Shown: positions 2,393-32,890 of the stretch, in pieces
Layout: every line of letters starts with the position of its first letter
How positions within the stretch are numbered: position 1 is the first letter of the stretch
Source: a virus
Direction: 5' to 3' (one strand)
Length of the DNA: 43,390 nt
IMG/VR virus record: IMGVR_UViG_3300000298_000017
Location: 1-43,390 of that record
Translations under genes and position numbers: made by a program
Notes under the pieces: generated by a model
Seen by the model: only the letters and a program-made list of their open reading frames with translations
Told to the model about the DNA's origin: nothing
Databases searched by the model: none

Positions 2393-4279
2393 TCACTCCA
2401 CCAAGTCTGTACCGCTTCTACGGTCCTCGTCCCTTAGATAAGGCCGCAAAAACATTGACGCCTCTCTCGGATAGAAGCCAATGTCCAGTTTGACTCGTTG
2501 TGAACTGTTCCCATAAACCTCACCGCTCTTGTTTGTATCAGCAGTTTCTCGGACGGTCGTAGCCGCCACCGAACCTGGGACCATTCCGTCGTTAACCAAG
2601 GTAACACGCCGCTCAATATTAGGCATAGCGCGCTCTAACTCGCTAAGTACATCTAGTCTGGATACAGCAGATTTGACAGAGGCTGCGTTTCCCTCCAGCC
2701 CGTTCGCTATCCCTTGGTCAATATTCTTGCCCAGGCGCTCCCCTCGCTTAGACGGAGAATGTACCTCTGCTTCTTTCTCGGCGGTTCCAAAAATCGCATC
2801 TATGACAGAACCTATGGCGTCTACCACATTCCCGACCATGGACAAGAATCCATCTATCAGGCCCTGAATGATATTGGCTCCAATGTCAAACAGCATTTGT
2901 GGCAACTGGGCAAACCCATCCAAAATAGCTTTAACTACATCAGGAAGCGCAAGCACAATGCTTGGAATCGCACTTATGATGCCGTAAACTAGAGCAGTAA
3001 GAATTTCGACGCCGGTTCCAATTATTTCAGGAAGATTCTCTATGATAAAATCAATAATGGATGTAAGTATCTGCGGGAGATTTTCCATCAAAATTGGAAT
3101 TGCAGAAACAATCCCATCTATCAGGCTTATAAGAATGTCGGCCCCTGTATCCAGAATGGAGGGCAAATTTTCGGTAAAATATTCTGAAATTGACGATATT
3201 ATTTCTGGCAGCTTCTCTACAAGGGACGGAATGCCATTTTTGATTCCATCCGCTATGTATTTGAGAAGTTCAATCCCGGCATCCAACAAGGAGGGAGCCA
3301 GTTCTACAAGAGCAACGAATATTTCTTCGACCACCTGTGCCAGTCCGTCCAGCAGGGTCGGCAGATTATCGATGATCCCCTGCAAAATAGCTTGGAGAAC
3401 ATCCACGCCAAAGGAAAGAAAATCCGGGAGCTTCTCCACCAGCGCCGTGACCATATCGCCGATGGCCGCAGAAAGCGCCTCATCCGCTCCATCTACACCA
3501 TTGACCAGGTCATTGAACGCCGTAACGACACTTGCGATTGAAGGGAGAAATTCAGATAGGAGATTATTTTTTACTTTTGATACGGTTTCTCCCAGTTGAG
3601 ATAACGTATCATCGAGAAGGATCTGATTTTCTCTCGCCTGAATCAGCGCTTCGTTGTTTCGATAAAATGCCTCGCTCGCTTGGTCGTAGGTCCTGGACAG
3701 GGTGTCCATAATAAGCTGGTTGCGTTCACTCTCAGAGGTACATTCGGCCAACTTTTCGTTAAACTCATCCTCGGAGATTCCAGCCCAGTTGAGCGCGTCA
3801 GCCAGAACGCCGGTTACCTGACCGACCTTCGCCGTCTCGTTTGCGCTTTCAATCAGCCCTTCGATTGGAAGGGAGTCGCCAAAGGTACCGAATACACCAG
3901 CGGCGATATCGGTCCATGTGGATACGTCCTCCTCATTCTCCGCCAGTTTTGCCAAGAGCTGGGATGCCTCGGTAGCCGTATCGGTATCGCCAAGTATTTT
4001 GTAAAAGTCGCCGTAAGCTTTGGAGGCTGTTTCAGGTCCATATCCCGCCGCCTCAAAGGCGGTATTCAATTTACCTTGGGCGACTCGGTATTCTTCGGTA
4101 GCAGATTCCAGGGCTAGGAGTCCGGTCACCGCTCCAGTTGCGGCGGTTGCTACTCCTCCAATGGCCGCTACAGTTCCTTTCAGCGCCGTCTTGGCAACGC
4201 CACCCAACTTGGATAAGCCAGACTTAAAACCGCTTTCGTCGATATCTGTTCCGATTTTTACAGTGCCATCGTTCGCCAA
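2393..4279 (-). CDS. Tail tape measure protein
   Basis: 628 aa, the largest tail-module ORF. It has helical A/G/L/I-rich repeats (ENLPSILDTGADILISLIDGI, ENLPEIIGTGVEILTALVYGI). TTG start after AGGAGGTG. It is located after the two chaperone-position genes. Confidence 0.85.
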   Translation of the reverse strand: MANDGTVKIGTDIDESGFKSGLSKLGGVAKTALKGTVAAIGGVATAATGAVTGLLALESATEEYRVAQGKLNTAFEAAGYGPETASKAYGDFYKILGDTDTATEASQLLAKLAENEEDVSTWTDIAAGVFGTFGDSLPIEGLIESANETAKVGQVTGVLADALNWAGISEDEFNEKLAECTSESERNQLIMDTLSRTYDQASEAFYRNNEALIQARENQILLDDTLSQLGETVSKVKNNLLSEFLPSIASVVTAFNDLVNGVDGADEALSAAIGDMVTALVEKLPDFLSFGVDVLQAILQGIIDNLPTLLDGLAQVVEEIFVALVELAPSLLDAGIELLKYIADGIKNGIPSLVEKLPEIISSISEYFTENLPSILDTGADILISLIDGIVSAIPILMENLPQILTSIIDFIIENLPEIIGTGVEILTALVYGIISAIPSIVLALPDVVKAILDGFAQLPQMLFDIGANIIQGLIDGFLSMVGNVVDAIGSVIDAIFGTAEKEAEVHSPSKRGERLGKNIDQGIANGLEGNAASVKSAVSRLDVLSELERAMPNIERRVTLVNDGMVPGSVAATTVRETADTNKSGEVYGNSSQRVKLDIGFYPREASMFLRPYLRDEDRRSGTDLVE

Positions 4280-4993: not shown

Positions 4994-5349
4994 TTTTTCA
5001 GATTCTGTAGGGTGAGCAGCTTCTGTACCTCCGGTCGGTTCAGCGCTTCCCTGGCTTCCGCCAGCTTTGCTTCCATTCTTGCTTTCCGTGCGGGTGCGTC
5101 ATAAGCCGCAATGATGTCCTCACACGCCTTCATCAATTCGTTTGTATCTACCTCTTCCACGCTGGGCAAAGAGCCGGGAGCGAGATCCAAAACGAACATA
5201 TGGAGCCGCTGGACTACCTCCCGGCGGGTGATCTCCCCACTACGGTAATCCTGATCGATTTTTGCCACAGATTCGATCTTATCATCCACGGACAATGTTC
5301 TAGCGGGCAACTCATAGGTCTTTCCTTGGATGGTAACTTTGTAATTCAT
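4990..5349 (-). CDS. Tail assembly chaperone (gpG position)
   Basis: 119 aa between the major tail protein and the Gp15-like gene. Ends CTG AAA AAA TGA, overlapping the next ATG. Confidence 0.5.
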   Translation of the reverse strand: MNYKVTIQGKTYELPARTLSVDDKIESVAKIDQDYRSGEITRREVVQRLHMFVLDLAPGSLPSVEEVDTNELMKACEDIIAAYDAPARKARMEAKLAEAREALNRPEVQKLLTLQNLKK

Positions 5350-5361
5350 GTTGTTCTCTCC

Positions 5362-5859
5362 TTAGACAGCAGAATATGTATACTCTGTGGGGGCAGTTCC
5401 AACGCTCCGAAGGTCTACGGAAATAGCGGAGTTTTCGCCAGCATTTCCGCCGCCATCAGAATTAACGATGATGGAAACGGTGCCCTTCTCTCCCTTACCA
5501 GTCAGCAGAGAGAAATAAACATAGGGTACAACGACCTTCTGGCCTACTCCATGAGCGATATCCAGGCCAAAGCAGTAGTCCTGGAAAGCGTCGCCAATGT
5601 AGCGGTCGCCGGTGATGGCAAAGGTGCGCTGTGTGCCAGTCTTGGAGGTGGACAGTCCCGTTCGGATATACTGCTTGTCCTGGGTAACGGGGTTCATCTG
5701 TGGGTCCAAGCCAGCAATGCCCATCTGCACAACGGTATAGTCCTTCTCCGTGGTGGCCTCCTCTCCAATCCCGACTGCCAACACCCAATCATCGTTGGTA
5801 GCAAAACCAGCAAATTCATCATTCGGAGTATATCCGGCCATTAATTCAGATACTTTCAT
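5362..5859 (-). CDS. Major tail (tube) protein
   Basis: 165 aa, located after the connector genes and before the chaperones. No sheath gene is nearby. Strong RBS context. Confidence 0.6.
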   Translation of the reverse strand: MKVSELMAGYTPNDEFAGFATNDDWVLAVGIGEEATTEKDYTVVQMGIAGLDPQMNPVTQDKQYIRTGLSTSKTGTQRTFAITGDRYIGDAFQDYCFGLDIAHGVGQKVVVPYVYFSLLTGKGEKGTVSIIVNSDGGGNAGENSAISVDLRSVGTAPTEYTYSAV

Positions 5860-6293
5860 GCTTTCACTCCTTCTGTATAATACCTAACCCTGACCTGGAA
5901 CATATAGCGGGCGACGGTGCCCGCCTCATTCACCCCGGCCAGATTCGGCATATTTTGTAGATTTTCAATACTTAGCACCTTACATCCCTGGAATTTAGGG
6001 AAGTTTCGTGATCTGTTCTGCTCATCGATCCAGTCCATAAAGTCCTGAACGCTCTGCGCCTGCTCTGCGTTGATATCGCTTGTGCCTTGATCCTGGGGCA
6101 GCATCTGCACAACGGCGAACTCATAGACCTTGATCCCCACGTCCCGAATGAACCGCTTCTCCCACACGTCGCTGTACACCGTTTCAACGCTGACACGCCC
6201 CGCCTTATCTGTGGCGCTGTTGAAATAGAGGAAGGACTTCACGGCGGGGCATTTCTCCAGAAATTCTAGAATTTCTTTATTTTTGTTCGCCAT
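5856..6293 (-). CDS. Tail completion / terminator-position protein
   Basis: ATG at 6293 (MANKNKEILEFLEK). Overlaps the major tail protein start by 4 nt. Call is from position within the connector block. Confidence 0.45.
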   Translation of the reverse strand: MANKNKEILEFLEKCPAVKSFLYFNSATDKAGRVSVETVYSDVWEKRFIRDVGIKVYEFAVVQMLPQDQGTSDINAEQAQSVQDFMDWIDEQNRSRNFPKFQGCKVLSIENLQNMPNLAGVNEAGTVARYMFQVRVRYYTEGVKA

Positions 6294-6297
6294 AAAA

Positions 6298-6687
6298 TCA
6301 CTTCCTCTTGATATAGGTTTCAATATCCTCCGCTAGTCTGTCGCCCTTTGCAGTCATGGCGGCCCGCTCCCAGTGGGAGGTCGTTCCTGGCGTATGGTAT
6401 TCTAACGGCTTCCCGGATGGATATTTCGATTCATTTTTCTTTGCGTAGCTGCTTCCGTTTTTAGCGAGGTACAACTCCCCCTCCCATTGATAGTGAGCAT
6501 GGGGAGATTTGTAATGTACGAAATCTTTTGTTATATCTATGTTTATATTGAGCTTCCCCTCACTTCCACCTGGAACACATTGTGAGCAATAGGCATGCAG
6601 TCGAGTATGGGCGTATTTCCTGACATCATCTGAAAATATCCGTTTGAACGTTTTCTTCGGGTTGAAAATCTCAACACTGATATTCAT
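6298..6687 (-). CDS. Head-tail joining protein (HK97 gp10-like position)
   Basis: ATG at 6687 (MNISVEIFNPKK), ATGA-coupled with the upstream gene. The longer track ORF start at 6870 lies inside the preceding gene. Confidence 0.45.
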   Translation of the reverse strand: MNISVEIFNPKKTFKRIFSDDVRKYAHTRLHAYCSQCVPGGSEGKLNINIDITKDFVHYKSPHAHYQWEGELYLAKNGSSYAKKNESKYPSGKPLEYHTPGTTSHWERAAMTAKGDRLAEDIETYIKRK

Positions 6688-10459: not shown

Positions 10460-11625
10460 ATTTTCTGCACCGTCGGTCCTGTTATAGATCTTGTCCTTTC
10501 CGGCCTTGGGGTAAGCCCAGCCTGTTCGCAAAATTGCTTGTATTCTGCGCTCAGTGCCGCTGATTTCTTCCGGGCCTGTGTAGCTCCCAGCTTGTCACCT
10601 GCGGCTATCATGGCATCCCTCTCGTCCTTTGCATAGCGGATTGCAGTCTCCATCTGCCTTTGTCTCTGGCTGGCTTCGTAGCGGCTCATCTTCTGCCCCT
10701 TGTACTCGATCTTTTCTGAGGATCGTCGGTTGATGTCCGCCAGCTCCTTCCGGCTGTAGACCGACTTGGAAACCCCCAGTACGATGGGCGTGGCAAAGTG
10801 CTGGCAATTCAGCGTCCCAAAAGGGCGGTCAAGACTGCGATTGATGCGCTCCCACTCCTCATTGGAGAACTGCCGTCCCTGGATGTGGCGGTGGTCGGGG
10901 GCGCAGAGGCCGTGGGCGGAGATCTCCACACCATCGGCTCCAAACTCTCGTCCGGTCTCCTCCATCATTTGACTGTTGAGCCGCCGAACACCCTCCAGGA
11001 TATTCATGCGGGCGGAGGAATCCAGGCGGCGGGAGTATCCGCTTTCCCAGGTCACCCGGCGTAGGCCGCTTCGGGCCATCTCCTTGACTGTTGAGCGCAT
11101 TGCGCTCTGATAATCCACAACGCCGGTCTGCACATAGGCAATCGCCCGGTCAATAGCGGAGATGTAGTATTCCCGCAATGGGATGGTCTGCTTGCCACGC
11201 TTGAATCCAATCATGTAGGTGTTGGAGATATTGGCTGTACCATCCATAGCCTGACGCTTTGCGGCGTCCACAAAGGAGGACAGTACCGACCTGGCGGCGT
11301 AGCTCTGGAGCGCATCCATTTTCCTTGCTCTGTAATAGGTGTTGGCAAACTCCACATTCTCCTCCGCCACCTCCTCGAACAGCCTTTCCACTTCCTGCTG
11401 GTTCACACCCGTAATACGGGCAACTTCTTTCTCAATGGCCTTGAGGTCCGCCCCAGCATATTCGATGGCTGTTTTCAGGCGGTGAGCGTCCGCCGCACCG
11501 ATATCTCCAATTTTACGGATTCGCTCACAGATACGTTGAACAACATAGTTGTTCAGGCTCTCCAGGTTTTCCACGATGTTGTCCGGCAAGCCCTCCAGCC
11601 AGGACTCATTCATCAGTCGGCTCAT
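10456..11625 (-). CDS. Head morphogenesis / minor capsid protein (Mu F / SPP1 gp7-like)
   Basis: 389 aa immediately after the portal. Core sequence GADGVEISAHGLCAPDHRHIQGRQFSNEEWERIN is typical of the MuF-like family. Confidence 0.8.
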   Translation of the reverse strand: MSRLMNESWLEGLPDNIVENLESLNNYVVQRICERIRKIGDIGAADAHRLKTAIEYAGADLKAIEKEVARITGVNQQEVERLFEEVAEENVEFANTYYRARKMDALQSYAARSVLSSFVDAAKRQAMDGTANISNTYMIGFKRGKQTIPLREYYISAIDRAIAYVQTGVVDYQSAMRSTVKEMARSGLRRVTWESGYSRRLDSSARMNILEGVRRLNSQMMEETGREFGADGVEISAHGLCAPDHRHIQGRQFSNEEWERINRSLDRPFGTLNCQHFATPIVLGVSKSVYSRKELADINRRSSEKIEYKGQKMSRYEASQRQRQMETAIRYAKDERDAMIAAGDKLGATQARKKSAALSAEYKQFCEQAGLTPRPERTRSITGPTVQKI

Positions 11626-13024
11626 TTATGATCGGCTGAATTGCCGCCTCCTGTATGTACTGGCTTCCGGCTTCTTCGGCAATCTCCTCCACGCGGGCCT
11701 TGGCCGTCTCATAATCCTCATCCATCATCCAGGCACGAACCTCCGCCTTATCTACAGCGCCGATTCCCTCCGCAACCGTAAGCTGATTGAAGTGTTCATT
11801 CAGTTGTTCGATATAAGAAGCGGACCAATCATAATGCGTCTCCCACGGTCCAATCGGGGCCAGATTATTATAATTGGCAATCACGTCCACAGCGTGGAGC
11901 AGATCGTCTGTCCCTCGTTCCAGTGCCCGGCGGAACTTGGTGATAACCGCAAATGTCGAGTTAAGCGCCGCCCGCATTTCAGTGGCGGTGGCGTAGGAGG
12001 TAGTCGGCGGCGTCAGTATTCCGGGAGACAGGCCACATAGGAGCTCCACCATCTTGTTGTTGACTGTAATTCCGACCTCCAGGTCTGAACCCCGTATCTC
12101 TGGAGAAAACTCTTGGATCAGTTTGCCGGGGTTGGCATTATCTCCGACACCTCTCATCATCTGAAAGAAACGCCGTTTTTCCTGTGGTAGCACTACATTT
12201 CCGTTTTCATCCTTCACCAAAAGAGTCTTGTCGGCAAAGATCATAGTCTCCTTGGCGCTGTACTCCCGGTTGAAACGCTCATACGCCTCCACCGCCTTTG
12301 CCATAGGGCCGTCCACACCGGCTGTAATCTTCACGCCGTTTACGCCGTTCACGTCCGCCCGGTTGACCGCAGGCGACTTATAGCGGCCAAACAGCGGGCG
12401 GTCCACATTTGGGATGATCTGTTCCTCTGGGATGTCCTTCCAGGCTGGCACTTGGTCCAACCGAATCTCGTTCGCTCCCTTAAAGGCTACGTTACGGATG
12501 ATAAGCGCGCTGGTTTCCTGCCCACTCTCAGTCTGTGCCTCCTTAACCATCTGAATCTCATATCGCTGATATAACCCGGACTCATTTTTGATTTCTCCGA
12601 CCTTCAAAATACAGGACAGGATATCATTCCCGATGGACTCGCATACAGCGAAGTCTCCATTCTTCACGATATCTACGCCCAGGCGCTTGCCATCGGTATA
12701 TGGCTTAACAATGCAATCCCCAGTTCCCAGAGCTACCTCAGCGGCCACATCCATTCTGTCTCCCAGGTAGTAGTCCAAAAAATTCTGAATAAATTTCGCT
12801 CTGGCACTATCCCCCTCAATTGTGATAGTGCTGTCCTGCATAGCCAGGGTCGCCACTTTGTTTGCCACAACCGCTGTTACGGAGATATTTGACATATCGC
12901 TGTAATCATCCCGGTATATTGGCTTATCTTGCAACTCCAGCCCGACCTTCTGGGCCAGATAAAGCAAAATGTTCTTCACAAATCCCGTAGGGTACACCCC
13001 CTCAATACATATACTGCTTGACAA
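11606..13024 (-). CDS. Portal protein (SPP1 gp6-like)
   Basis: 472 aa between terL and the MuF-like gene, overlapping both neighbours. The start codon is uncertain (TTG at 13024). Confidence 0.8.
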   Translation of the reverse strand: MSSSICIEGVYPTGFVKNILLYLAQKVGLELQDKPIYRDDYSDMSNISVTAVVANKVATLAMQDSTITIEGDSARAKFIQNFLDYYLGDRMDVAAEVALGTGDCIVKPYTDGKRLGVDIVKNGDFAVCESIGNDILSCILKVGEIKNESGLYQRYEIQMVKEAQTESGQETSALIIRNVAFKGANEIRLDQVPAWKDIPEEQIIPNVDRPLFGRYKSPAVNRADVNGVNGVKITAGVDGPMAKAVEAYERFNREYSAKETMIFADKTLLVKDENGNVVLPQEKRRFFQMMRGVGDNANPGKLIQEFSPEIRGSDLEVGITVNNKMVELLCGLSPGILTPPTTSYATATEMRAALNSTFAVITKFRRALERGTDDLLHAVDVIANYNNLAPIGPWETHYDWSASYIEQLNEHFNQLTVAEGIGAVDKAEVRAWMMDEDYETAKARVEEIAEEAGSQYIQEAAIQPIINEPTDE

Positions 13025-27411: not shown

Positions 27412-27435
27412 GTTCTCACCCCCTCCCCTTCTTTC

Positions 27436-27464
27436 TTGTCCCCCACCCGCTCCCGTGGTAAAAT
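27436..27464 (+). promoter_or_regulatory. Possible promoter for 27488..27823
   Basis: TTGTCC, 17-nt spacer, TAAAAT (27459-27464), followed by AAAGGGGGTGA and a TTG start. Confidence 0.35.
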
Positions 27465-27487: not shown

Positions 27488-27823
27488 TTGGACATTACTC
27501 TCACAAAAGACGCCGATAAGCTAATTTGTCTGATTTACAAGGATTATCTGGAGCGCCGCAAAAGAGGAATCTCGAAATCCTCCGCCAAAGCATACGCAGA
27601 GCGGTCGGACTGGCCAAAATCATTGACTGATCATTTTTCCGCTGAAGATGTCCGAGATACTTTGCGGGAATTGAAAAACAGCGGGTTCACCAGAAATTAC
27701 TTGTACGGAGGGTTTGCCCTAACAGATCAGGGAATCGCTTACATGGAAAACAGATTCCCCAACGGGGTCGCCCAAATCCTTGAATGGATGGGGAGAATCA
27801 AAGGCGCTGTTCCATTTATGTAA
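27488..27823 (+). CDS. Hypothetical protein, 111 aa, plus strand
   Basis: TTG start 5 nt after AAAGGGGGTGA. Product LDITLTKDADKLICLIYKDYLERRKRG... Convergent with 27816..27998. Confidence 0.55.
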   Translation: MDITLTKDADKLICLIYKDYLERRKRGISKSSAKAYAERSDWPKSLTDHFSAEDVRDTLRELKNSGFTRNYLYGGFALTDQGIAYMENRFPNGVAQILEWMGRIKGAVPFM

Positions 27824-27998
27824 CCTTGTACTTGATATTAGCCTCGTGGATGTCAATGTGAATGACAGCTTCCATCTCTCCATCGGGGCTAATATTGTTT
27901 ACATCCAATCTGGTCACATAATCCAAGCGAACTCCGTTTAGGTAAAGACCATCTTCTTTTGTTTCCAGTATGTTCACACTCACCACCCCCTCCCGCAT
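27816..27998 (-). CDS. Hypothetical protein, about 55-60 aa
   Basis: Track ORF. The start is uncertain, with several GTG codons after GGGAGGGGG. Confidence 0.45.
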   Translation of the reverse strand: MREGVVSVNILETKEDGLYLNGVRLDYVTRLDVNNISPDGEMEAVIHIDIHEANIKYKVT

Positions 27999-28011: not shown

Positions 28012-28221
28012 TTATTGGACAGATTCGGTGCTATCGTTTTTTTGAACAAGCCGTCCAAACGCCTCGTTCAGCTTTTGCTCCGCCCCCCGCGGCTCCTTGT
28101 GTCCGTTAAGCACAACGCTGAGATATTTTGGATTCCAACCGACCTCTGCAGCGAGCTGTTTTGCCGTTACCCCGGCAAGGTGCATCTCGCCAAGAAGATC
28201 AGCAGTCCACTTTGCAGGCAT
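28012..28221 (-). CDS. Cro-like HTH regulator (first gene of the leftward early operon)
   Basis: 69 aa containing GVTAKQLAAEVGWNPKYLSVVLNG. RBS GGAAGGAGGAG. Transcribed divergently from the repressor side. Confidence 0.55.
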   Translation of the reverse strand: MPAKWTADLLGEMHLAGVTAKQLAAEVGWNPKYLSVVLNGHKEPRGAEQKLNEAFGRLVQKNDSTESVQ

Positions 28222-28237
28222 ATAACTCCTCCTTCCG

Positions 28238-28266
28238 TTGATTACTATGGTTAATTGTTGTATACT
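28238..28266 (+). promoter_or_regulatory. Sigma-70-type promoter upstream of the Zn-ribbon/DUF4145-like gene
   Basis: TTGATT (28238-28243), 17-nt spacer actATGGTTAAttgttg, then TATACT (28261-28266). Confidence 0.5.
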
Positions 28267-28301
28267 CTCAATATCTGATAATAAATATTGGGGGTATTCT
28301 T

Positions 28302-28976
28302 ATGGCTGATAAGAAGTTCAATGTTATAAGCGTCGATGATGAAACTGAGTACATTTGTGAATGTGATGAAGTATCCAGTTGTCCAATTTGTCACTGGGCA
28401 TTGGTTCCGCAGAACATTGCGGGGTATTATGTTCCAAACAGAAATGCTTCTCTGTTAGAACTATGTCCTAAGTGCAGGAATATTTTTTTAGTTCAATATG
28501 AAGCTTTTGAAGTTGGAACCAGGGAACTTGCTAGTTCCGGAATAACTGGTATATATCCAGAAGTTCCAGAAGACCGGACAATCTCCAAGGAGATCAGAAA
28601 ATTGTCCCCTAAGTTTGTATCTATTTACGCACAGGCCGCAAAAGCAGAAAAGTCAAAACTAACTGAAATATGTGGCAGTGGTTTTCGAAAGTCTCTCGAG
28701 TTTCTTGTAAAAGACTATGTGATTTATAAATTTCCGGCAGATGAAGCCACAATTAAGGTAGAACCGCTAAGTGCCTCTATACGTCGTATAGATGATGAAA
28801 GAATCAGAGTTCTTACAGAACGTGCCACATGGATTGGGAACGATGAAACTCACTACATTAAAAAGCACGAAAATCTTGATATTGCAGAAATGAAACGCTT
28901 TATCGACGCAGTTCTTCACTACATAGAATCCGAGCTTTCCTTTGAGGTGGCTCTTTCTATTCAGCCGAAGAAGTAA
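28302..28976 (+). CDS. Zinc-ribbon plus DUF4145-like (HEPN-like) protein
   Basis: N-terminal CECDEVSSCPIC...CPKC. C-terminal AAKAEKSKLTEICGSGFRKSLEFLVKDY...RATWIGNDETHY...FIDAVLHYIESEL resembles DUF4145. Lies in an AT-rich island. Confidence 0.5.
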   Translation: MADKKFNVISVDDETEYICECDEVSSCPICHWALVPQNIAGYYVPNRNASLLELCPKCRNIFLVQYEAFEVGTRELASSGITGIYPEVPEDRTISKEIRKLSPKFVSIYAQAAKAEKSKLTEICGSGFRKSLEFLVKDYVIYKFPADEATIKVEPLSASIRRIDDERIRVLTERATWIGNDETHYIKKHENLDIAEMKRFIDAVLHYIESELSFEVALSIQPKK

Positions 28977-29151
28977 AGGGGTCTATCTCTCCGATTTTCT
29001 TCCCATCAAATGACCAGTATTGAATTACTGTCCTAAATGGACAATCGCTCTCCCCAGAGCCTCGCACAGACTTAGTTTCAATAACTTGAATAACTCTGGC
29101 AAAATCTGTTCCTCTCTGGTATGTGTCTCTTTCCAAATCTCTCACCCCCAT
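28957..29151 (-). CDS. Hypothetical protein, 64 aa
   Basis: Track ORF. Its 3' end overlaps 28302..28976 by 20 nt in convergent orientation. Confidence 0.45.
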   Translation of the reverse strand: MGVRDLERDTYQRGTDFARVIQVIETKSVRGSGESDCPFRTVIQYWSFDGKKIGEIDPFTSSAE

Positions 29152-29258
29152 CTCTTGTCTTTGTTTTCCGACGCAAGCCGCTAGATTTAGATCACCTCCA
29201 AAACCCGTTCTTACTTTTTAGGCAAGAATACGAAAGTTATCTTTTTCAAAGAATTTAG

Positions 29259-29287
29259 TTGACTTTGGTATACCTCTAATGTATCAT
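29259..29287 (+). promoter_or_regulatory. Sigma-70-type promoter upstream of the repressor operon, with a palindromic site in the spacer
   Basis: TTGACT (29259-29264), 17-nt spacer ttGGTATACCtctaatg, then TATCAT (29282-29287). The inverted partner AGAGGTATAC is at 29312-29321. Confidence 0.55.
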
Positions 29288-29430
29288 ATAGGTGTCAACG
29301 ATAATCAACCAAGAGGTATACTTTTTTTCAACCCGTGTCAGTATCATAGCACAACAATAGTTAATTTTCAAGGAAAAAAGTTGAACAAAGTACATTTCTG
29401 CTTATTGCACAATTTTTGAGGTGAGCAGTT

Positions 29431-29775
29431 GTGTTTTATGACAAATTCGTTTTTCTTTGTAAAGAAAAAGGCGTGGCACCAACGAGGGCGGCCCTTGATA
29501 TTGGGCTAAGTAAATCTGCACCTATTAAGTGGCGAACAACCGGAGCAACGCCAAACGGAGAAACACTAAACAAAATTGCAGAATACTTTTGCGTTTCTGT
29601 AAGTGTTCTTCTTGGAGAAGAAACAAAAAAAGCGCCCACCGATGGTGAGCGCAAAGTCAGCGACGACGATATTATGTTTGCCTTGTGGGGCGATTCTGAT
29701 GATGTAGATAAAGACGACCTGGACGACGTAAAGCGATACGCCGCCTTTGTCCGGGAAAGGAAGAAGAAAAAATGA
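29431..29775 (+). CDS. XRE-family repressor (CI/ImmR-like)
   Basis: GTG start after GAGGTGA. HTH segment FLCKEKGVAPTRAALDIGLSKSAPIKWRTTGATPNGETLNKIAEYFCVSVSVLLG. Followed by an ImmA-like gene. Confidence 0.8.
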   Translation: MFYDKFVFLCKEKGVAPTRAALDIGLSKSAPIKWRTTGATPNGETLNKIAEYFCVSVSVLLGEETKKAPTDGERKVSDDDIMFALWGDSDDVDKDDLDDVKRYAAFVRERKKKK

Positions 29776-30203
29776 TGGACCTGATGGGCCTATACCGTAT
29801 TGCAGAAGAAAATAATGTTGCGGTAGACTGCTTTGAACTACAAAAGCGAGAGGCCCTTTCCGTCATGGATAACGATGGGTCTTGCTATATTGCAATCGAT
29901 CCGTTCAAGTTGACATCAACCTTAGATGAAAAAATAAAACTTGGGCATGAACTCGGTCATTGCATGACTGGCAGTTTCTACAATAGATATGCCACTTGTG
30001 ATATAAGAAAAAAGCACGAGCACAGGGCGGACAAGTGGGCAATTGAGGAAATGATACCTGTGTGTGCCTTGGATGAAGCTATCGCTGATGGTCATACAGA
30101 AATGTGGGACTTAGCAGACTATTTCCGTGTTACCGAGGATTTTATGCGAAAGGCCGTCTGTTGGTATACCTACGGGAATTTGGCGACGGAGCTTTATTTT
30201 TAG
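29772..30203 (+). CDS. immA: ImmA/IrrE-family zinc metalloprotease (anti-repressor protease)
   Basis: HEXXH motif in KLGHELGHCMTG. ATGA-coupled to the XRE gene. Confidence 0.75.
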   Translation: MMDLMGLYRIAEENNVAVDCFELQKREALSVMDNDGSCYIAIDPFKLTSTLDEKIKLGHELGHCMTGSFYNRYATCDIRKKHEHRADKWAIEEMIPVCALDEAIADGHTEMWDLADYFRVTEDFMRKAVCWYTYGNLATELYF

Positions 30204-30252
30204 TGACCATACCGTCAGAGGGCGGAAAAAGATAGAGAGAGGGATAGCAGAA

Positions 30253-31101
30253 ATGAAAACTTGGAAACTGGTATCTGGAATTATTTCGATTGCTATGTGT
30301 CTTTTGGTCCTGTTCCAATCATGTTTTGCCGGGCTTGGAGATGTCATGATTAACGCACTAGATAAAAACGCAAGCAGTTCAAGTGGTGTTGCCGGCGTTT
30401 TTGTAGCTTTTCTTATGATGTCCGGTGGAATTGTATCTATTGTTACGAGAAATTGGTCCAAGGGCGGGAATATTGCCATGGTTGTTTTATACGGTCTTGC
30501 TGCTCTTATTGGATATACTTCATTCGGTTTTTTCAAGGATCTTATTGTCTGGGCGACTTGGTGCTTGGTCTGTGCTGTTTTAGCTGCGATCTCTTTATTG
30601 AGACCGCCAGTATTACAAAGCAACAAAAATTTTTCTAAGGCAGAAGCTCCTATCCCGGCTCCTGTGCAACGAGAGTTCACATACACCTCCAAGGACATGG
30701 TCAGAGCGGAGGCTATGTCCAGCTATGTAACCCGCTTTGAATTTAATTTTGGCCTCACAGAAAAAGATTGTTCTAAGCTTTTCTCTTTTGTAGAGCGGGC
30801 TGTTTCTCCTGATGTCGAAGTTGTCAGTGCTTTTATCGCAAAGAAAAACGGAACGCCATGCGCCTGTGCTATGGCTATCAGCAAATTGATTATTGCGGAT
30901 GACTGGAAAACCAGAACTATTCAGACTTTAGATATATCAGGTTTTACATATGAAAACGGGACACTGACTGTCAAGAACAAAGAGGGCGATATCATCCTTT
31001 CCGTTTCCGCCCAAAGAGGACAAGCGATCTGTGATGTATGTAACCAATCTTTAATTGCCTGCAAAAAGGAAATAGAAAGCAACTCAAAAGTTAATGTATA
31101 A
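30253..31101 (+). CDS. Membrane protein with four predicted TM segments and a soluble C-terminal domain
   Basis: AGAGAGGGA followed by ATG at 30253. Hydrophobic runs LVSGIISIAMCLLVLF, VAGVFVAFLMMSGGIVSIV, MVVLYGLAALIGY, VWATWCLVCAVLAAISLL. Confidence 0.65.
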   Translation: MKTWKLVSGIISIAMCLLVLFQSCFAGLGDVMINALDKNASSSSGVAGVFVAFLMMSGGIVSIVTRNWSKGGNIAMVVLYGLAALIGYTSFGFFKDLIVWATWCLVCAVLAAISLLRPPVLQSNKNFSKAEAPIPAPVQREFTYTSKDMVRAEAMSSYVTRFEFNFGLTEKDCSKLFSFVERAVSPDVEVVSAFIAKKNGTPCACAMAISKLIIADDWKTRTIQTLDISGFTYENGTLTVKNKEGDIILSVSAQRGQAICDVCNQSLIACKKEIESNSKVNV

Positions 31102-31771: not shown

Positions 31772-32890
31772 TTGTCAATGAAATGCTGCAAATGCAGGAA
31801 AGAGATTCCAGACGAAAGCAAATTTTGTTTGAAATGTGGCGCAAAACAAAACTTATTACAAAGCCGCCATACTAGGGGAAACGGGCAAGGCACCGCAATC
31901 AAGCGTGGAAGCACCTGGACGGCCATTTGGACCATAGAGGTATATCCAGATACCAAAGAGAGGAAAATCCATCAGAAACGCCGCTGGAAGGGCGGATTTA
32001 AGACTAAGACCGCAGCCCTCGCTTATGCCGCCAATCCCATACAGGAAGAAAAGGAATCTCCGACGCTCCGCACCTATTACACTGGGTGGGAAAAATCCGA
32101 TATGTGCGACTTGTCCAGATCTAAACAGACAGCATTTAAAATCGCATGGAGTAAAATGAACGAATTAGCCGGAAAGCGTATGGATGAGCTTACCATCAAT
32201 CAGATACAGTCCTGTGTAAGCAGAAACGCTCCTACATATTATCCGGCAAAAGATATGAAAACGCTGTTATCCCATCTATACAGACGGGCTGTGGCAGAGG
32301 GGACAGCTAGAACTAACCTGGCAGAATTTATCCGTCTGCCTCCGCTGGAGGAAAAAGAGCTTCAGCCCTTCACTGAAATTGAACTGCACAAGCTCTGGAC
32401 CGCTTATGGAACTGGTGACCGCATAATCGGGTTTGTCCTCCTGATGATCTACACTGGGATGATGCCGGGAGAGCTTTTGAAGTTTAAGGGTGATATGGTA
32501 GACTGGACAGCTCATGAGATTAGAGGCTGTGGCCTGAAAACAAAAAAGCGTAAAGAAACACCCATTGTATTTCCCGACCTGTTGGAGCCAGTATTGCGTA
32601 ATCTTATTGAAAGCAGTAAGTCCCATTCCGACTATGTAGTAGGGCTAAACAAAGATAAATTTTATAGTGAATATCATGCCTCACTTCAACGAGCGGGGGT
32701 CCGGGATCTACCTCCCTATTCATGTCGCCACACAACGGCAACCGCTCTCGCACTTGGAAATATCGCCCCAAGCGTGATACAAGAAGTCATGCGACACACA
32801 AAATTCTCTACGACACAACGCTATATCCACCCAGATAGCGCATCGGCTTTGGCTGCCGTAAACGCTTTGGGGCAGGGAAAAGAATGCTAA
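31772..32890 (+). CDS. int: Tyrosine integrase with an N-terminal zinc ribbon
   Basis: C-terminal catalytic region YSCRHTTATALALGNIAPSVIQEVMRHTKFSTTQRYIHP (R...HxxR...Y). N-terminal CCKCRKEIPDESKFCLKCG. attP lies immediately downstream. Confidence 0.9.
   Translation: MSMKCCKCRKEIPDESKFCLKCGAKQNLLQSRHTRGNGQGTAIKRGSTWTAIWTIEVYPDTKERKIHQKRRWKGGFKTKTAALAYAANPIQEEKESPTLRTYYTGWEKSDMCDLSRSKQTAFKIAWSKMNELAGKRMDELTINQIQSCVSRNAPTYYPAKDMKTLLSHLYRRAVAEGTARTNLAEFIRLPPLEEKELQPFTEIELHKLWTAYGTGDRIIGFVLLMIYTGMMPGELLKFKGDMVDWTAHEIRGCGLKTKKRKETPIVFPDLLEPVLRNLIESSKSHSDYVVGLNKDKFYSEYHASLQRAGVRDLPPYSCRHTTATALALGNIAPSVIQEVMRHTKFSTTQRYIHPDSASALAAVNALGQGKEC

Follow-up and report, generated by a model that had tools for sequence, protein, structure and literature searches.

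A putative two-gene cassette, formed by a distant RAZR-like protein gene and a small convergent partner, at the genetic switch of a temperate phage

Results

An AT-rich island with two convergent genes

The subject of this work is an AT-rich island (approximately positions 28238-29151) located at the lysis/lysogeny switch of a temperate phage, and the two genes found in it: one encodes a protein of 224 amino acids (aa), referred to below as the putative effector, and the other a protein of 64 aa, named S1. The phage sequence is that of the IMG/VR record IMGVR_UViG_3300000298_000017, and the whole stretch of DNA analysed, 43,390 nucleotides (nt) in length, is called the window. It corresponds to a temperate phage of the siphovirus type, in which the genes for the tape measure, the major head protein, the portal (11606-13024), the large terminase, SSB and Gam are encoded on the minus strand.

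The effector gene (28302-28976, plus strand) begins with an ATG preceded by a GGGGG Shine-Dalgarno (SD) sequence 7-9 nt upstream, and its product matches phrog_1305 of the PHROGs collection over its full length (E 2.4e-32). The S1 gene (28957-29151, minus strand) is convergent with it, and the 3' ends of both genes overlap by 20 nt, exactly as described in the initial annotation of this DNA; the S1 protein matches phrog_14088 (E 1.3e-12). Besides the ATG at 29151 that produces the 64-aa form, S1 has an alternative start at TTG 29136, which has a better SD sequence (GGGGGTGAGAG) and would give a protein of 59 aa. A reading of both as chance open reading frames (ORFs) was ruled out: they are considered real genes because the protein families to which they belong are large and diverse, and show conservative substitutions.

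The region 28222-29430 had been initially described as 1.2 kb of visibly AT-richer DNA, and a GC profile bore this out. Its GC content is 0.384, compared to a mean of 0.505 for the window (standard deviation 0.039, windows of equal length), and it ranks the lowest among 844 sliding windows. The DNA of the island is AT-rich and looks foreign. The near-consensus promoter also pointed out in that annotation, TTGATT-17-TATACT, was located at 28238-28266 (plus strand), upstream of the effector gene. It is a sigma-70-like sequence with 9/12 consensus matches and constitutes the left edge of the mobile cassette described below. Promoter-like sites as a class were not enriched (4 observed vs 3.2 expected from shuffles). 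This particular promoter is kept with the effector gene in two related loci (L004 and L021), even though the DNA of L021 further upstream is unrelated.

The effector family has a variable zinc ribbon and a conserved helical domain

A word-indexed search found 288 proteins related to the 224-aa protein, and an exhaustive profile search produced 2,653 representatives at 50% identity with E <= 1e-3, or 1,624 with E <= 1e-30. The members of this family are nearly all 215-245 aa long, and relatives are encoded by 507 IMG/VR viral contigs. All the conservation figures given below were obtained from an alignment of 262 relatives.

The protein is composed of an N-terminal all-beta zinc-ribbon domain (28302-28556, plus strand; residues 1-85), presumed to be the sensor, with CPxC motifs at 27-30 and 55-58, and of a C-terminal helical DUF4145/HEPN-like domain (28602-28976, plus strand; residues ~101-224). 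In the AlphaFold2 (AF2) model (pLDDT 88), the predicted all-beta part includes residues 4-85 with both CPxC knuckles, and the predicted helical part extends from 96 to 219. The four-Cys ribbon and the motifs GFRKSLEFLVKDY and WIGNDETHY, on which the initial annotation was based, are all present in the protein. G125, R129, N180 and H184 are invariant in the aligned members, and the four Cys residues (C27, C30, C55 and C58), E116, E133, K137, D138, W177, G179, D181, Y185 and K198 are invariant or nearly so. Both domains differ in their conservation, with a mean pairwise identity of 25.6% for the N-domain vs 50.3% for the C-domain, and a column entropy of 3.0 vs 1.7 bits. When the family profile was compared with the sequences of the PDB, the zinc-ribbon domain gave weak matches to RPB9 and to other Zn-ribbon proteins.

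The proposal that the C-terminal domain is DUF4145-like (PF13643, HEPN clan CL0291) holds at the family level, as judged from profile comparisons: the Pfam model is matched by 22 of 34 relatives (E <= 0.1, best 4.6e-5), and relatives at 40-45% identity carry the name DUF4145 at the NCBI. It does not stand for the window protein by itself, which remained below threshold (12 bits, E 0.22, vs a cut-off of 23.1 bits), with residues 122-200 aligned to profile positions 12-86 of 88. The DUF4145 region of the window protein is placed at residues ~111-200. When the AF2 model was compared with the PDB by Foldseek, the best helical matches were HEPN proteins (1wol, 2hsb, 1ufb and 8xeh), with target template-modelling scores of 0.4-0.6 and non-significant E values of 0.35-3.7; just two unnamed viral proteins of BFVD matched the model.

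With respect to the putative active site, the GN...H motif singled out in the initial annotation is present, but a normal HEPN site is not. Position 176, that of the HEPN Arg, is occupied nearly throughout by Thr, Ala, Val or Ser (residues listed for the 262 sequences: T 111, A 111, V 20, S 15 and I 2) and never by Arg, so that the signature R-x-x-G-N-x-x-x-H is incomplete, while G179, N180 and H184 show no or almost no variation. The conservation of N180, H184, R129, D181 and Y185 points to a catalytic pocket, in which the conserved R129 and basic residues at 187/188 might compensate for the lost Arg. From the near-invariant D181-E182, the activity may be predicted to depend on a metal, in contrast with canonical HEPN enzymes.

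The effector is probably a remote relative of RAZR

This architecture had not been recognised initially as a named system, a claim that no longer holds because it was already known as PD-T7-4 and, later, RAZR. PD-T7-4 was obtained by functional selection in Escherichia coli and listed as 'Zn finger-HEPN', with an HHpred layout of a Zn ribbon at 9-59 and DUF4145 at 87-175 (Vassallo 2022, PMC9519451). It was renamed RAZR (ring-activated zinc-finger RNase) in 2026, from work with E. coli UMB1727 (Zhang et al., PMC13017515; PDB 9Y9C). The zinc-finger domain of RAZR, which is its most variable part and sets its specificity, binds ring-shaped phage proteins, either the portal or the Gp77 recombinase; a 24-mer forms around the ring and single-stranded RNA is then cleaved non-specifically, resulting in abortive infection, for which both R146 and H154 are needed (PMC13017515).

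A bridge between RAZR and the window family was provided by gp7 of the streptococcal phage SM1, used as positive control, which matches Pfam DUF4145 (E 1.2e-14), the PD-T7-4 hidden Markov model of PADLOC (E 1.5e-15) and 9y9c_OA (E 6.5e-7). The RAZR sequence was obtained indirectly, by using the RAZR fragment from the gp7/9y9c_OA alignment in a genome scan that gave 26 loci. One of these, from Citrobacter portucalensis (L192), encodes a 219-aa protein that agrees with all the residue numbers of RAZR-Ec (V21, AGN 68-70, Q140, R146, H154, D179, D180 and R184).

In hhalign comparisons, the gp7-like proteins matched RAZR with a probability of 99.4% (E 2e-21, 188 columns). The window family matched RAZR (23 sequences, Gram-negative) with 57% (E 1e-4) over 145 co-linear columns, with the first Cys knuckle at one end and the His motif at the other, the streptococcal gp7-like proteins with 70.9% (E 3.8e-5, 147 columns), and RAZR plus the gp7-like proteins with 82.5% (E 9.8e-6, 163 columns). 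In the alignment, TWIGNDETH faces RIVGNQAVH, with H184 equivalent to H154, G179-N180 to G149-N150, and R129 to R105. The catalytic His is thus retained, as H184 is present in 262/262 sequences. A direct comparison of SM1 gp7 and gp11, as single sequences, with the family profile showed nothing; by the other tests, gp7 is a canonical RAZR homologue and gp11 is TIR-like.

RAZR and the window protein are similar in size (219 and 224 aa, respectively) and share the N-terminal Cys4 zinc ribbon, a conserved linker with an LSP motif and the C-terminal DUF4145/HEPN domain. In both of them the zinc-ribbon half is the variable one, and both are borne on mobile elements. In contrast, the window clade has T/A/V/S in the place of R146 and a near-invariant D-E after the Asn, and the beta domain of the window protein is ~25 residues longer. 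Moreover, the window gene has S1 as its partner and runs antisense to the prophage early operon that contains it, whereas the description of RAZR is that of a one-gene system, frequently in overlap with an integrase gene. SM1 gp7 resembles the window protein in its two-domain architecture, in its convergent partner of the S1 family (gp6, phrog_14088 E 1.9e-32) and in the slot of its gene, which is found within the early operon, in antisense orientation and close to the switch. However, its DUF4145 domain is canonical, its R-K-L-G-N-I-G-A-H motif is complete, it gives clear matches to PD-T7-4 and 9Y9C, and the window clade is only remotely similar to it (E 3.8e-5). SM1 gp7 and its relatives are true homologues of RAZR, as yet uncharacterised, that occur in prophages of streptococci and other Firmicutes.

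Apart from the sub-threshold DUF4145 score of the window protein, several other results weigh against this relationship. No PADLOC model, PD-T7-4 included, matched the window protein (E <= 1) when this check, proposed initially, was carried out, and the PD-T7-4 model was matched by just 1 of 34 relatives (E 2e-4). Against PDB sequences, both phmmer with the window protein and a search with the family profile missed 9Y9C, with merely weak Zn-ribbon matches, and the RAZR entry was not among the Foldseek matches listed for the AF2 model. The hhalign probabilities between the window family and RAZR are moderate (57-82%). Finally, the essential R146 of RAZR corresponds to T176, a position that is never Arg throughout the clade, and as D181/E182 are also near-invariant, the domain may work by another chemistry, or may have no RNase activity. 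For these reasons the window protein is assigned here to a clade that is RAZR-like but distant, and whose catalytic motif has been remodelled, and it is not counted as a strict PD-T7-4 member; by sequence, the clade represented in the window is a large, uncharacterised, Arg-less sister group found at the prophage switch.

S1 is a conserved partner of the effector gene

A profile search with S1 gave 904 clusters, all of 60-100 aa and unnamed, and neither a Pfam domain nor a PDB sequence match was found for it. The core of the family comprises 46 residues (consensus RGTDSAKVIQVIETKSVRGSGTEKDPVREVTQYWSLDGKLLAERDP) and is located outside the overlap with the effector gene; therefore, the similarity is not a shadow of the effector frame. 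The AF2 model predicts with confidence a three-stranded sheet, with a pLDDT above 90 in the core.

The initial annotation had considered a single-gene function for the island. The distribution of S1 required a revision of this view, and supports that S1 is a specifically linked, conserved partner of the effector. It was found convergent at the 3' end of the effector gene in 47 of 67 distinct loci, with overlaps of -4 to +88 nt, and elsewhere in the locus only once, so it adjoins the effector gene in 47 of the 48 loci that contain it. As a reciprocal check, three S1 proteins were picked regardless of their neighbours, and these adjoin an effector gene in 11/11 places (one of them truncated). 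S1 also accompanies the canonical, gp7-like RAZR homologues in 57 of 61 distinct phage loci. An S1 homologue was not found in the Gram-negative RAZR loci (L192-L217; 25 loci examined), in which small minus-strand ORFs are present near the 3' ends. The S1 partner goes unmentioned in the RAZR paper (PMC13017515) and in a later review.

In one metagenomic contig (L102, 3393-3899), the effector is shortened to 168 aa and has lost the C-terminal end that would overlap S1. The S1 gene beside it is complete and does not differ from the S1 of loci with a full-length effector, which may represent decay of the effector with retention of its partner.

Other results speak against a role of S1 as inhibitor of the effector. 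S1 shows no homology to Ith-1 or to known inhibitors, and Foldseek found no significant structural neighbour for the three-strand model. In ~30% of the effector loci, other short convergent ORFs, belonging to the helical families S2 and S3, are present instead of S1. Furthermore, small convergent ORFs also adjoin unrelated antisense genes, such as the TIR-like gp11 of SM1, the cargo of the Flavonifractor phage Chenonceau and the gene 27488-27823 of the window; hence the pattern may in part be a general property of early operons, which are compact. Taken together with the fact that the HepS protein described below evades self-targeting without an inhibitor (PMC13043305), these data would fit an explanation in which the effector is real and S1 is just an ordinary first early gene, the overlap being a product of compaction, and control during the lytic cycle being exerted by antisense transcription alone or by non-triggering variants of the sensed protein. 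We consider this explanation rather unlikely, because S1 was found only beside ZnR-DUF4145 genes, in the proportions given above and in otherwise unrelated phages, the clades of its partners are merely remotely similar to each other, and the block of homology with the cassette of L021 stops exactly at the S1 start. S1 sequences also group by partner clade (81 of 83 nearest neighbours), although this grouping is confounded by host phylogeny. A self-immunity role of S1 is the preferred reading.

The S3 family (core NLPEFKEL.EQAKKEADQL..TINRL.NFELKIDF, predicted helical) was detected downstream of the effector gene in nine S1-less loci (L052, L059, L060, L068-L071, L074 and L081). The S2 family (MNELERTALNEILRTV...) is found at other S1-less loci, and is also the partner of a TIR-like gene in SM1. 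The early region of this phage (L001, 5495-8681) contains three antisense defence-like genes, each of them overlapped at its 3' end by a small convergent ORF: gp7 (the RAZR/PD-T7-4 homologue) by gp6 (S1), gp11 by gp10 (S2), and gp14 (of the window clade) by gp13 (S2). The gp11 protein matches a TIR effector model of PADLOC (E 2.2e-17). In the window, a second plus-strand gene lies in the leftward early operon (27488-27823, 111 aa, phrog_750 E 3.8e-25 over its full length), with a TTG start, the SD sequence AAAGGGGGTG and a possible promoter, TTGTCC-17-TAAAAT, read by eye at 27435-27463. A 60-aa minus-strand ORF (27816-27998) overlaps the 3' end of this gene by 8 nt, in a layout like that of the effector and S1.

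The effector gene is antisense to the early lytic operon

To the left of the island there is a 'Cro-like' helix-turn-helix (HTH) gene (28012-28221, minus strand; 69 aa), with weak HTH_3 matches (E 0.0023), which is divergent from the effector gene and shared with phage Chenonceau. To its right, an XRE/RstR-like repressor (29431-29775, plus strand) and an ImmA-type M78 metallopeptidase (29772-30203, plus strand) are encoded, and a tyrosine integrase gene (31772-32890, plus strand) closes the lysogeny module. A 324-aa predicted membrane protein (30127-31101, plus strand; phrog_9418 E 2.5e-27) is encoded between the ImmA and the integrase genes, which is the classical place for superinfection-exclusion genes in Gram-positive phages.

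The promoter/operator region of the switch most likely corresponds to the 280-bp gap at 29152-29430. Two promoter candidates were found in it, each with 10/12 consensus matches: a leftward early-lytic one, TTGAAA-17-TATGAT (29343-29371, minus strand), with an upstream TG motif, and a rightward one for the repressor/ImmA operon, TTGACT-17-TATCAT (29259-29287, plus strand). These candidates converge, with start sites ~40 nt apart, in a convergent-promoter layout rather than a back-to-back one. As operator candidate, a perfect 10-nt inverted repeat, GTATACCTCT (29268-29277) and AGAGGTATAC (29312-29321), brackets the rightward -10 sequence. Exact copies of this 10-mer are present in the window only at 29268 and 29312, and control of the effector promoter by the repressor is therefore not claimed; allowing one mismatch gives 5 matches in the window, a number reached by 4 of 100 shuffles.

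If the switch promoters and operator lie in this gap, S1 would be the first gene of the leftward early operon, and the effector gene, which sits antisense between S1 and the 69-aa HTH gene, would be inside it. No terminator-like site was detected on the minus strand from the leftward promoter to position 28012, nor an intrinsic terminator between the convergent genes. The initial description of the island as an insertion between Cro-like and CI-like genes was thus right about the type of flanking genes, given the weak HTH_3 matches and the XRE/RstR-like repressor, but the effector gene appears to be antisense inside the leftward early operon instead of simply splitting cI from cro.

In all the prophage contexts examined, with the exception of a Paenibacillus locus, the effector gene is opposite to the early lytic operon and at 0.1-1.3 kb from the repressor/cro switch, usually separated from an HTH gene by a short divergent gap. 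This position is kept in prophages of Oscillospiraceae, Lachnospiraceae and Streptococcus that differ in their repressors (XRE + M78, or S24) and in their integrases (Tyr or Ser). The contexts include those of an 83%-identical homologue and of a 45%-identical Oscillibacter homologue, phages with S24 repressor and tyrosine integrase, phages with XRE + M78 and serine recombinase, the streptococcal phages SM1 and phiARI0460-1, and the loci reached from S1.

The strands on which both genes lie are relevant to another explanation, in which the pair would stabilise the prophage as a module of the addiction or toxin-antitoxin-like type, or the effector would be a catalytically dead RAZR mimic that poisons the oligomers of a host RAZR and acts as an anti-defence factor. 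HEPN toxins are frequent in toxin-antitoxin systems (PMC3710099), and a dead mimic would agree with the missing catalytic Arg and with the action of RAZR as a higher-order oligomer, open to disruption by a defective subunit (PMC13017515). However, S1 is on the early-lytic strand behind the lytic promoter, and its expected low level in the lysogen is a misfit with an antitoxin that is continuously needed. Likewise, the gene of an anti-defence factor should share the strand of the early operon instead of lying antisense to it, and a dead domain is difficult to reconcile with the invariant polar residues. In either of its forms, this explanation is very improbable.

The island is a mobile cassette in a putative defence hotspot

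The homology between the window and L021 spans exactly from 28238, in the -35 hexamer of the effector promoter, to 29149, at the S1 start, with unrelated DNA on either side. Chenonceau, the closest isolated phage, matches the flanks at 28067-28262 and 29620-29691 and has other cargo between them. A one-off insertion of the effector gene was ruled out, as the gene recurs in the slot. The prophage setting proposed in the initial annotation was confirmed by these data, since the gene belongs to the lysogeny module, has its own promoter and occupies a slot that holds other cargo in the closest phage.

In Chenonceau (L003, 5196-7168), the HTH gene and the repressor/ImmA genes are common to the window, and its slot has other contents. 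These include a 144-aa plus-strand ORF (5219-5653) with a hydrophobic C-terminus, a convergent 92-aa ORF (5598-5876) and a second copy of the HTH gene (6194-6439), for none of which a Pfam or PHROG match was found.

The lysogeny modules of the relatives hold genes for Abi_alpha, Abi_2, an FtsK_gamma-Mrr_cat nuclease, HSDR_N (HsdR_N) and HNH proteins. Judging from this gene content, the entire lysogeny module acts like a hotspot for defence genes. The defence-type genes were located at 2676-3542 and 6005-6859 in L004-L008, at 1-608 in L103/L106 and at 7252-9324 in L017.

The content of the slot also bears on whether the Arg-less protein could have a role in the switch itself rather than as an abortive-infection RNase, either by forming with S1 a lysis/lysogeny regulatory pair (for instance, by binding or processing early transcripts) or as a DNA/RNA-binding regulator. 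The absence of the canonical Arg in all 262 relatives, the constant position of the gene at the switch across large evolutionary distances and the PHROG label 'DNA binding protein' of phrog_1305 would be in agreement with such a role. Nevertheless, that label is an untested annotation, and a Pfam scan of the 224-aa protein found no HTH or other DNA-binding domain, while the conservation of N180, H184, R129, D181 and Y185 points to a catalytic pocket. In addition, the similar slot of SM1 holds a true RAZR homologue and a TIR effector-like gene, and Abi_alpha, Abi_2 and Mrr-type nuclease genes are found in the lysogeny modules of the relatives. Chenonceau has the switch genes without the effector gene, which is therefore dispensable for the switch. 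A role in the switch is thus improbable, and a defence function is the best hypothesis for the effector.

Discussion

The genes and boundaries described above lead us to propose, with about an even chance of being correct, that the island at ~28238-29151 is a two-gene prophage cassette, consisting of a RAZR-like defence effector and an early-lytic partner that provides self-immunity. According to this proposal, the promoter of the effector gene, placed on the 'lysogeny' strand, would drive its transcription in the lysogen, which would in this way be armed. Its variable zinc-ribbon domain would sense a protein of an infecting phage, and the C-terminal DUF4145/HEPN-type domain would then halt the infected cell, most likely by RNA cutting. 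Upon induction of the prophage, the leftward early promoter would make S1 one of the first proteins produced, as a putative inhibitor of the effector, and the same leftward transcription would cross the effector gene in antisense, reducing its expression. The combination of S1 and antisense transcription would keep the portal, ring- or particle-forming proteins of the phage itself from causing self-abortion.

Portal-type rings are built by every tailed phage. As RAZR is triggered by rings of this type, any prophage with such a sensor faces self-targeting. The phage of the window encodes its own portal and therefore would need self-protection. For every step of the proposal an experimental precedent exists in another system, RAZR being that for sensing and RNase activity.

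The best reading of the effector/S1 pair is that it parallels the unrelated Tha/Ith pair of the Staphylococcus aureus prophages 80alpha, phi11 and phiNM2 (Rostol et al. 2024, PMC11087260). Tha is a prophage HEPN effector encoded in the lysogeny region and activated by structural proteins of the incoming phage, and it also has a small convergent gene (66 aa), with an overlap of the 3' ends of 64 nt in 80alpha (ith-1/tha-1) and 20 nt in the window; in both cases a 'noncontiguous operon' logic would tie immunity to the life cycle of the phage. In contrast, Tha has 301 aa and the canonical R-x4-H motif and lacks a zinc ribbon, and Ith looks helical and acidic, whereas S1 is predicted to be three-stranded beta. 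Also, tha belongs to the cI operon and ith is read from a separate promoter, while in the window it is the effector that has its own promoter and S1 that would be in the early lytic operon. By hhalign, the probability was 0.1% both for Tha vs the window protein and for Ith vs S1. Mutation of ith-1 is reported to lower the titre after induction by 2-4 logs, with rescue by removal of the effector or by supply of the inhibitor in trans, and Ith-2 is reported to serve in immune evasion.

A second system for comparison is HepS, from the Salmonella prophage Gifsy-1, in which self-evasion is achieved through a non-triggering variant of the tail tip (Sargen et al. 2026, PMC13043305). Similar to the proposed function of the window protein, HepS is a single prophage-encoded abortive-infection protein with a HEPN domain that senses a structural protein of the infecting phage and must avoid self-targeting. 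It differs in belonging to another HEPN family, without a zinc ribbon, and in having no partner gene for self-evasion.

A broader proposal, which we put forward tentatively and hold to be possible rather than probable, is that S1 is the founding member of a widespread family of small beta-sheet anti-RAZR proteins (~900 clusters at 90% identity), expressed by Firmicutes prophages from the early lytic operon to silence their own RAZR-type sensor-RNase. In that case, the WIGNDETHY clade would derive from RAZR through a rebuilding of the active site (Arg-less, with an invariant Asn-Asp-Glu-x-His), and its chemistry or its target could differ from those of canonical HEPN RNases.

RAZR was characterised just in 2026, as a Gram-negative single-gene system (PMC13017515). 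The loci analysed here show that gut and streptococcal prophages, among them those of pneumococci and S. mitis, commonly carry RAZR-type genes at their genetic switch, and that in these prophages such genes are nearly always accompanied by one specific small convergent gene. S1 offers a cheap and concrete test case for a new family of inhibitors, and bears on whether the 'antisense partner' solution of the staphylococcal Tha/Ith pair is general. The Arg-less clade, for its part, constitutes a natural experiment on the requirements for activity of the DUF4145/HEPN pocket.

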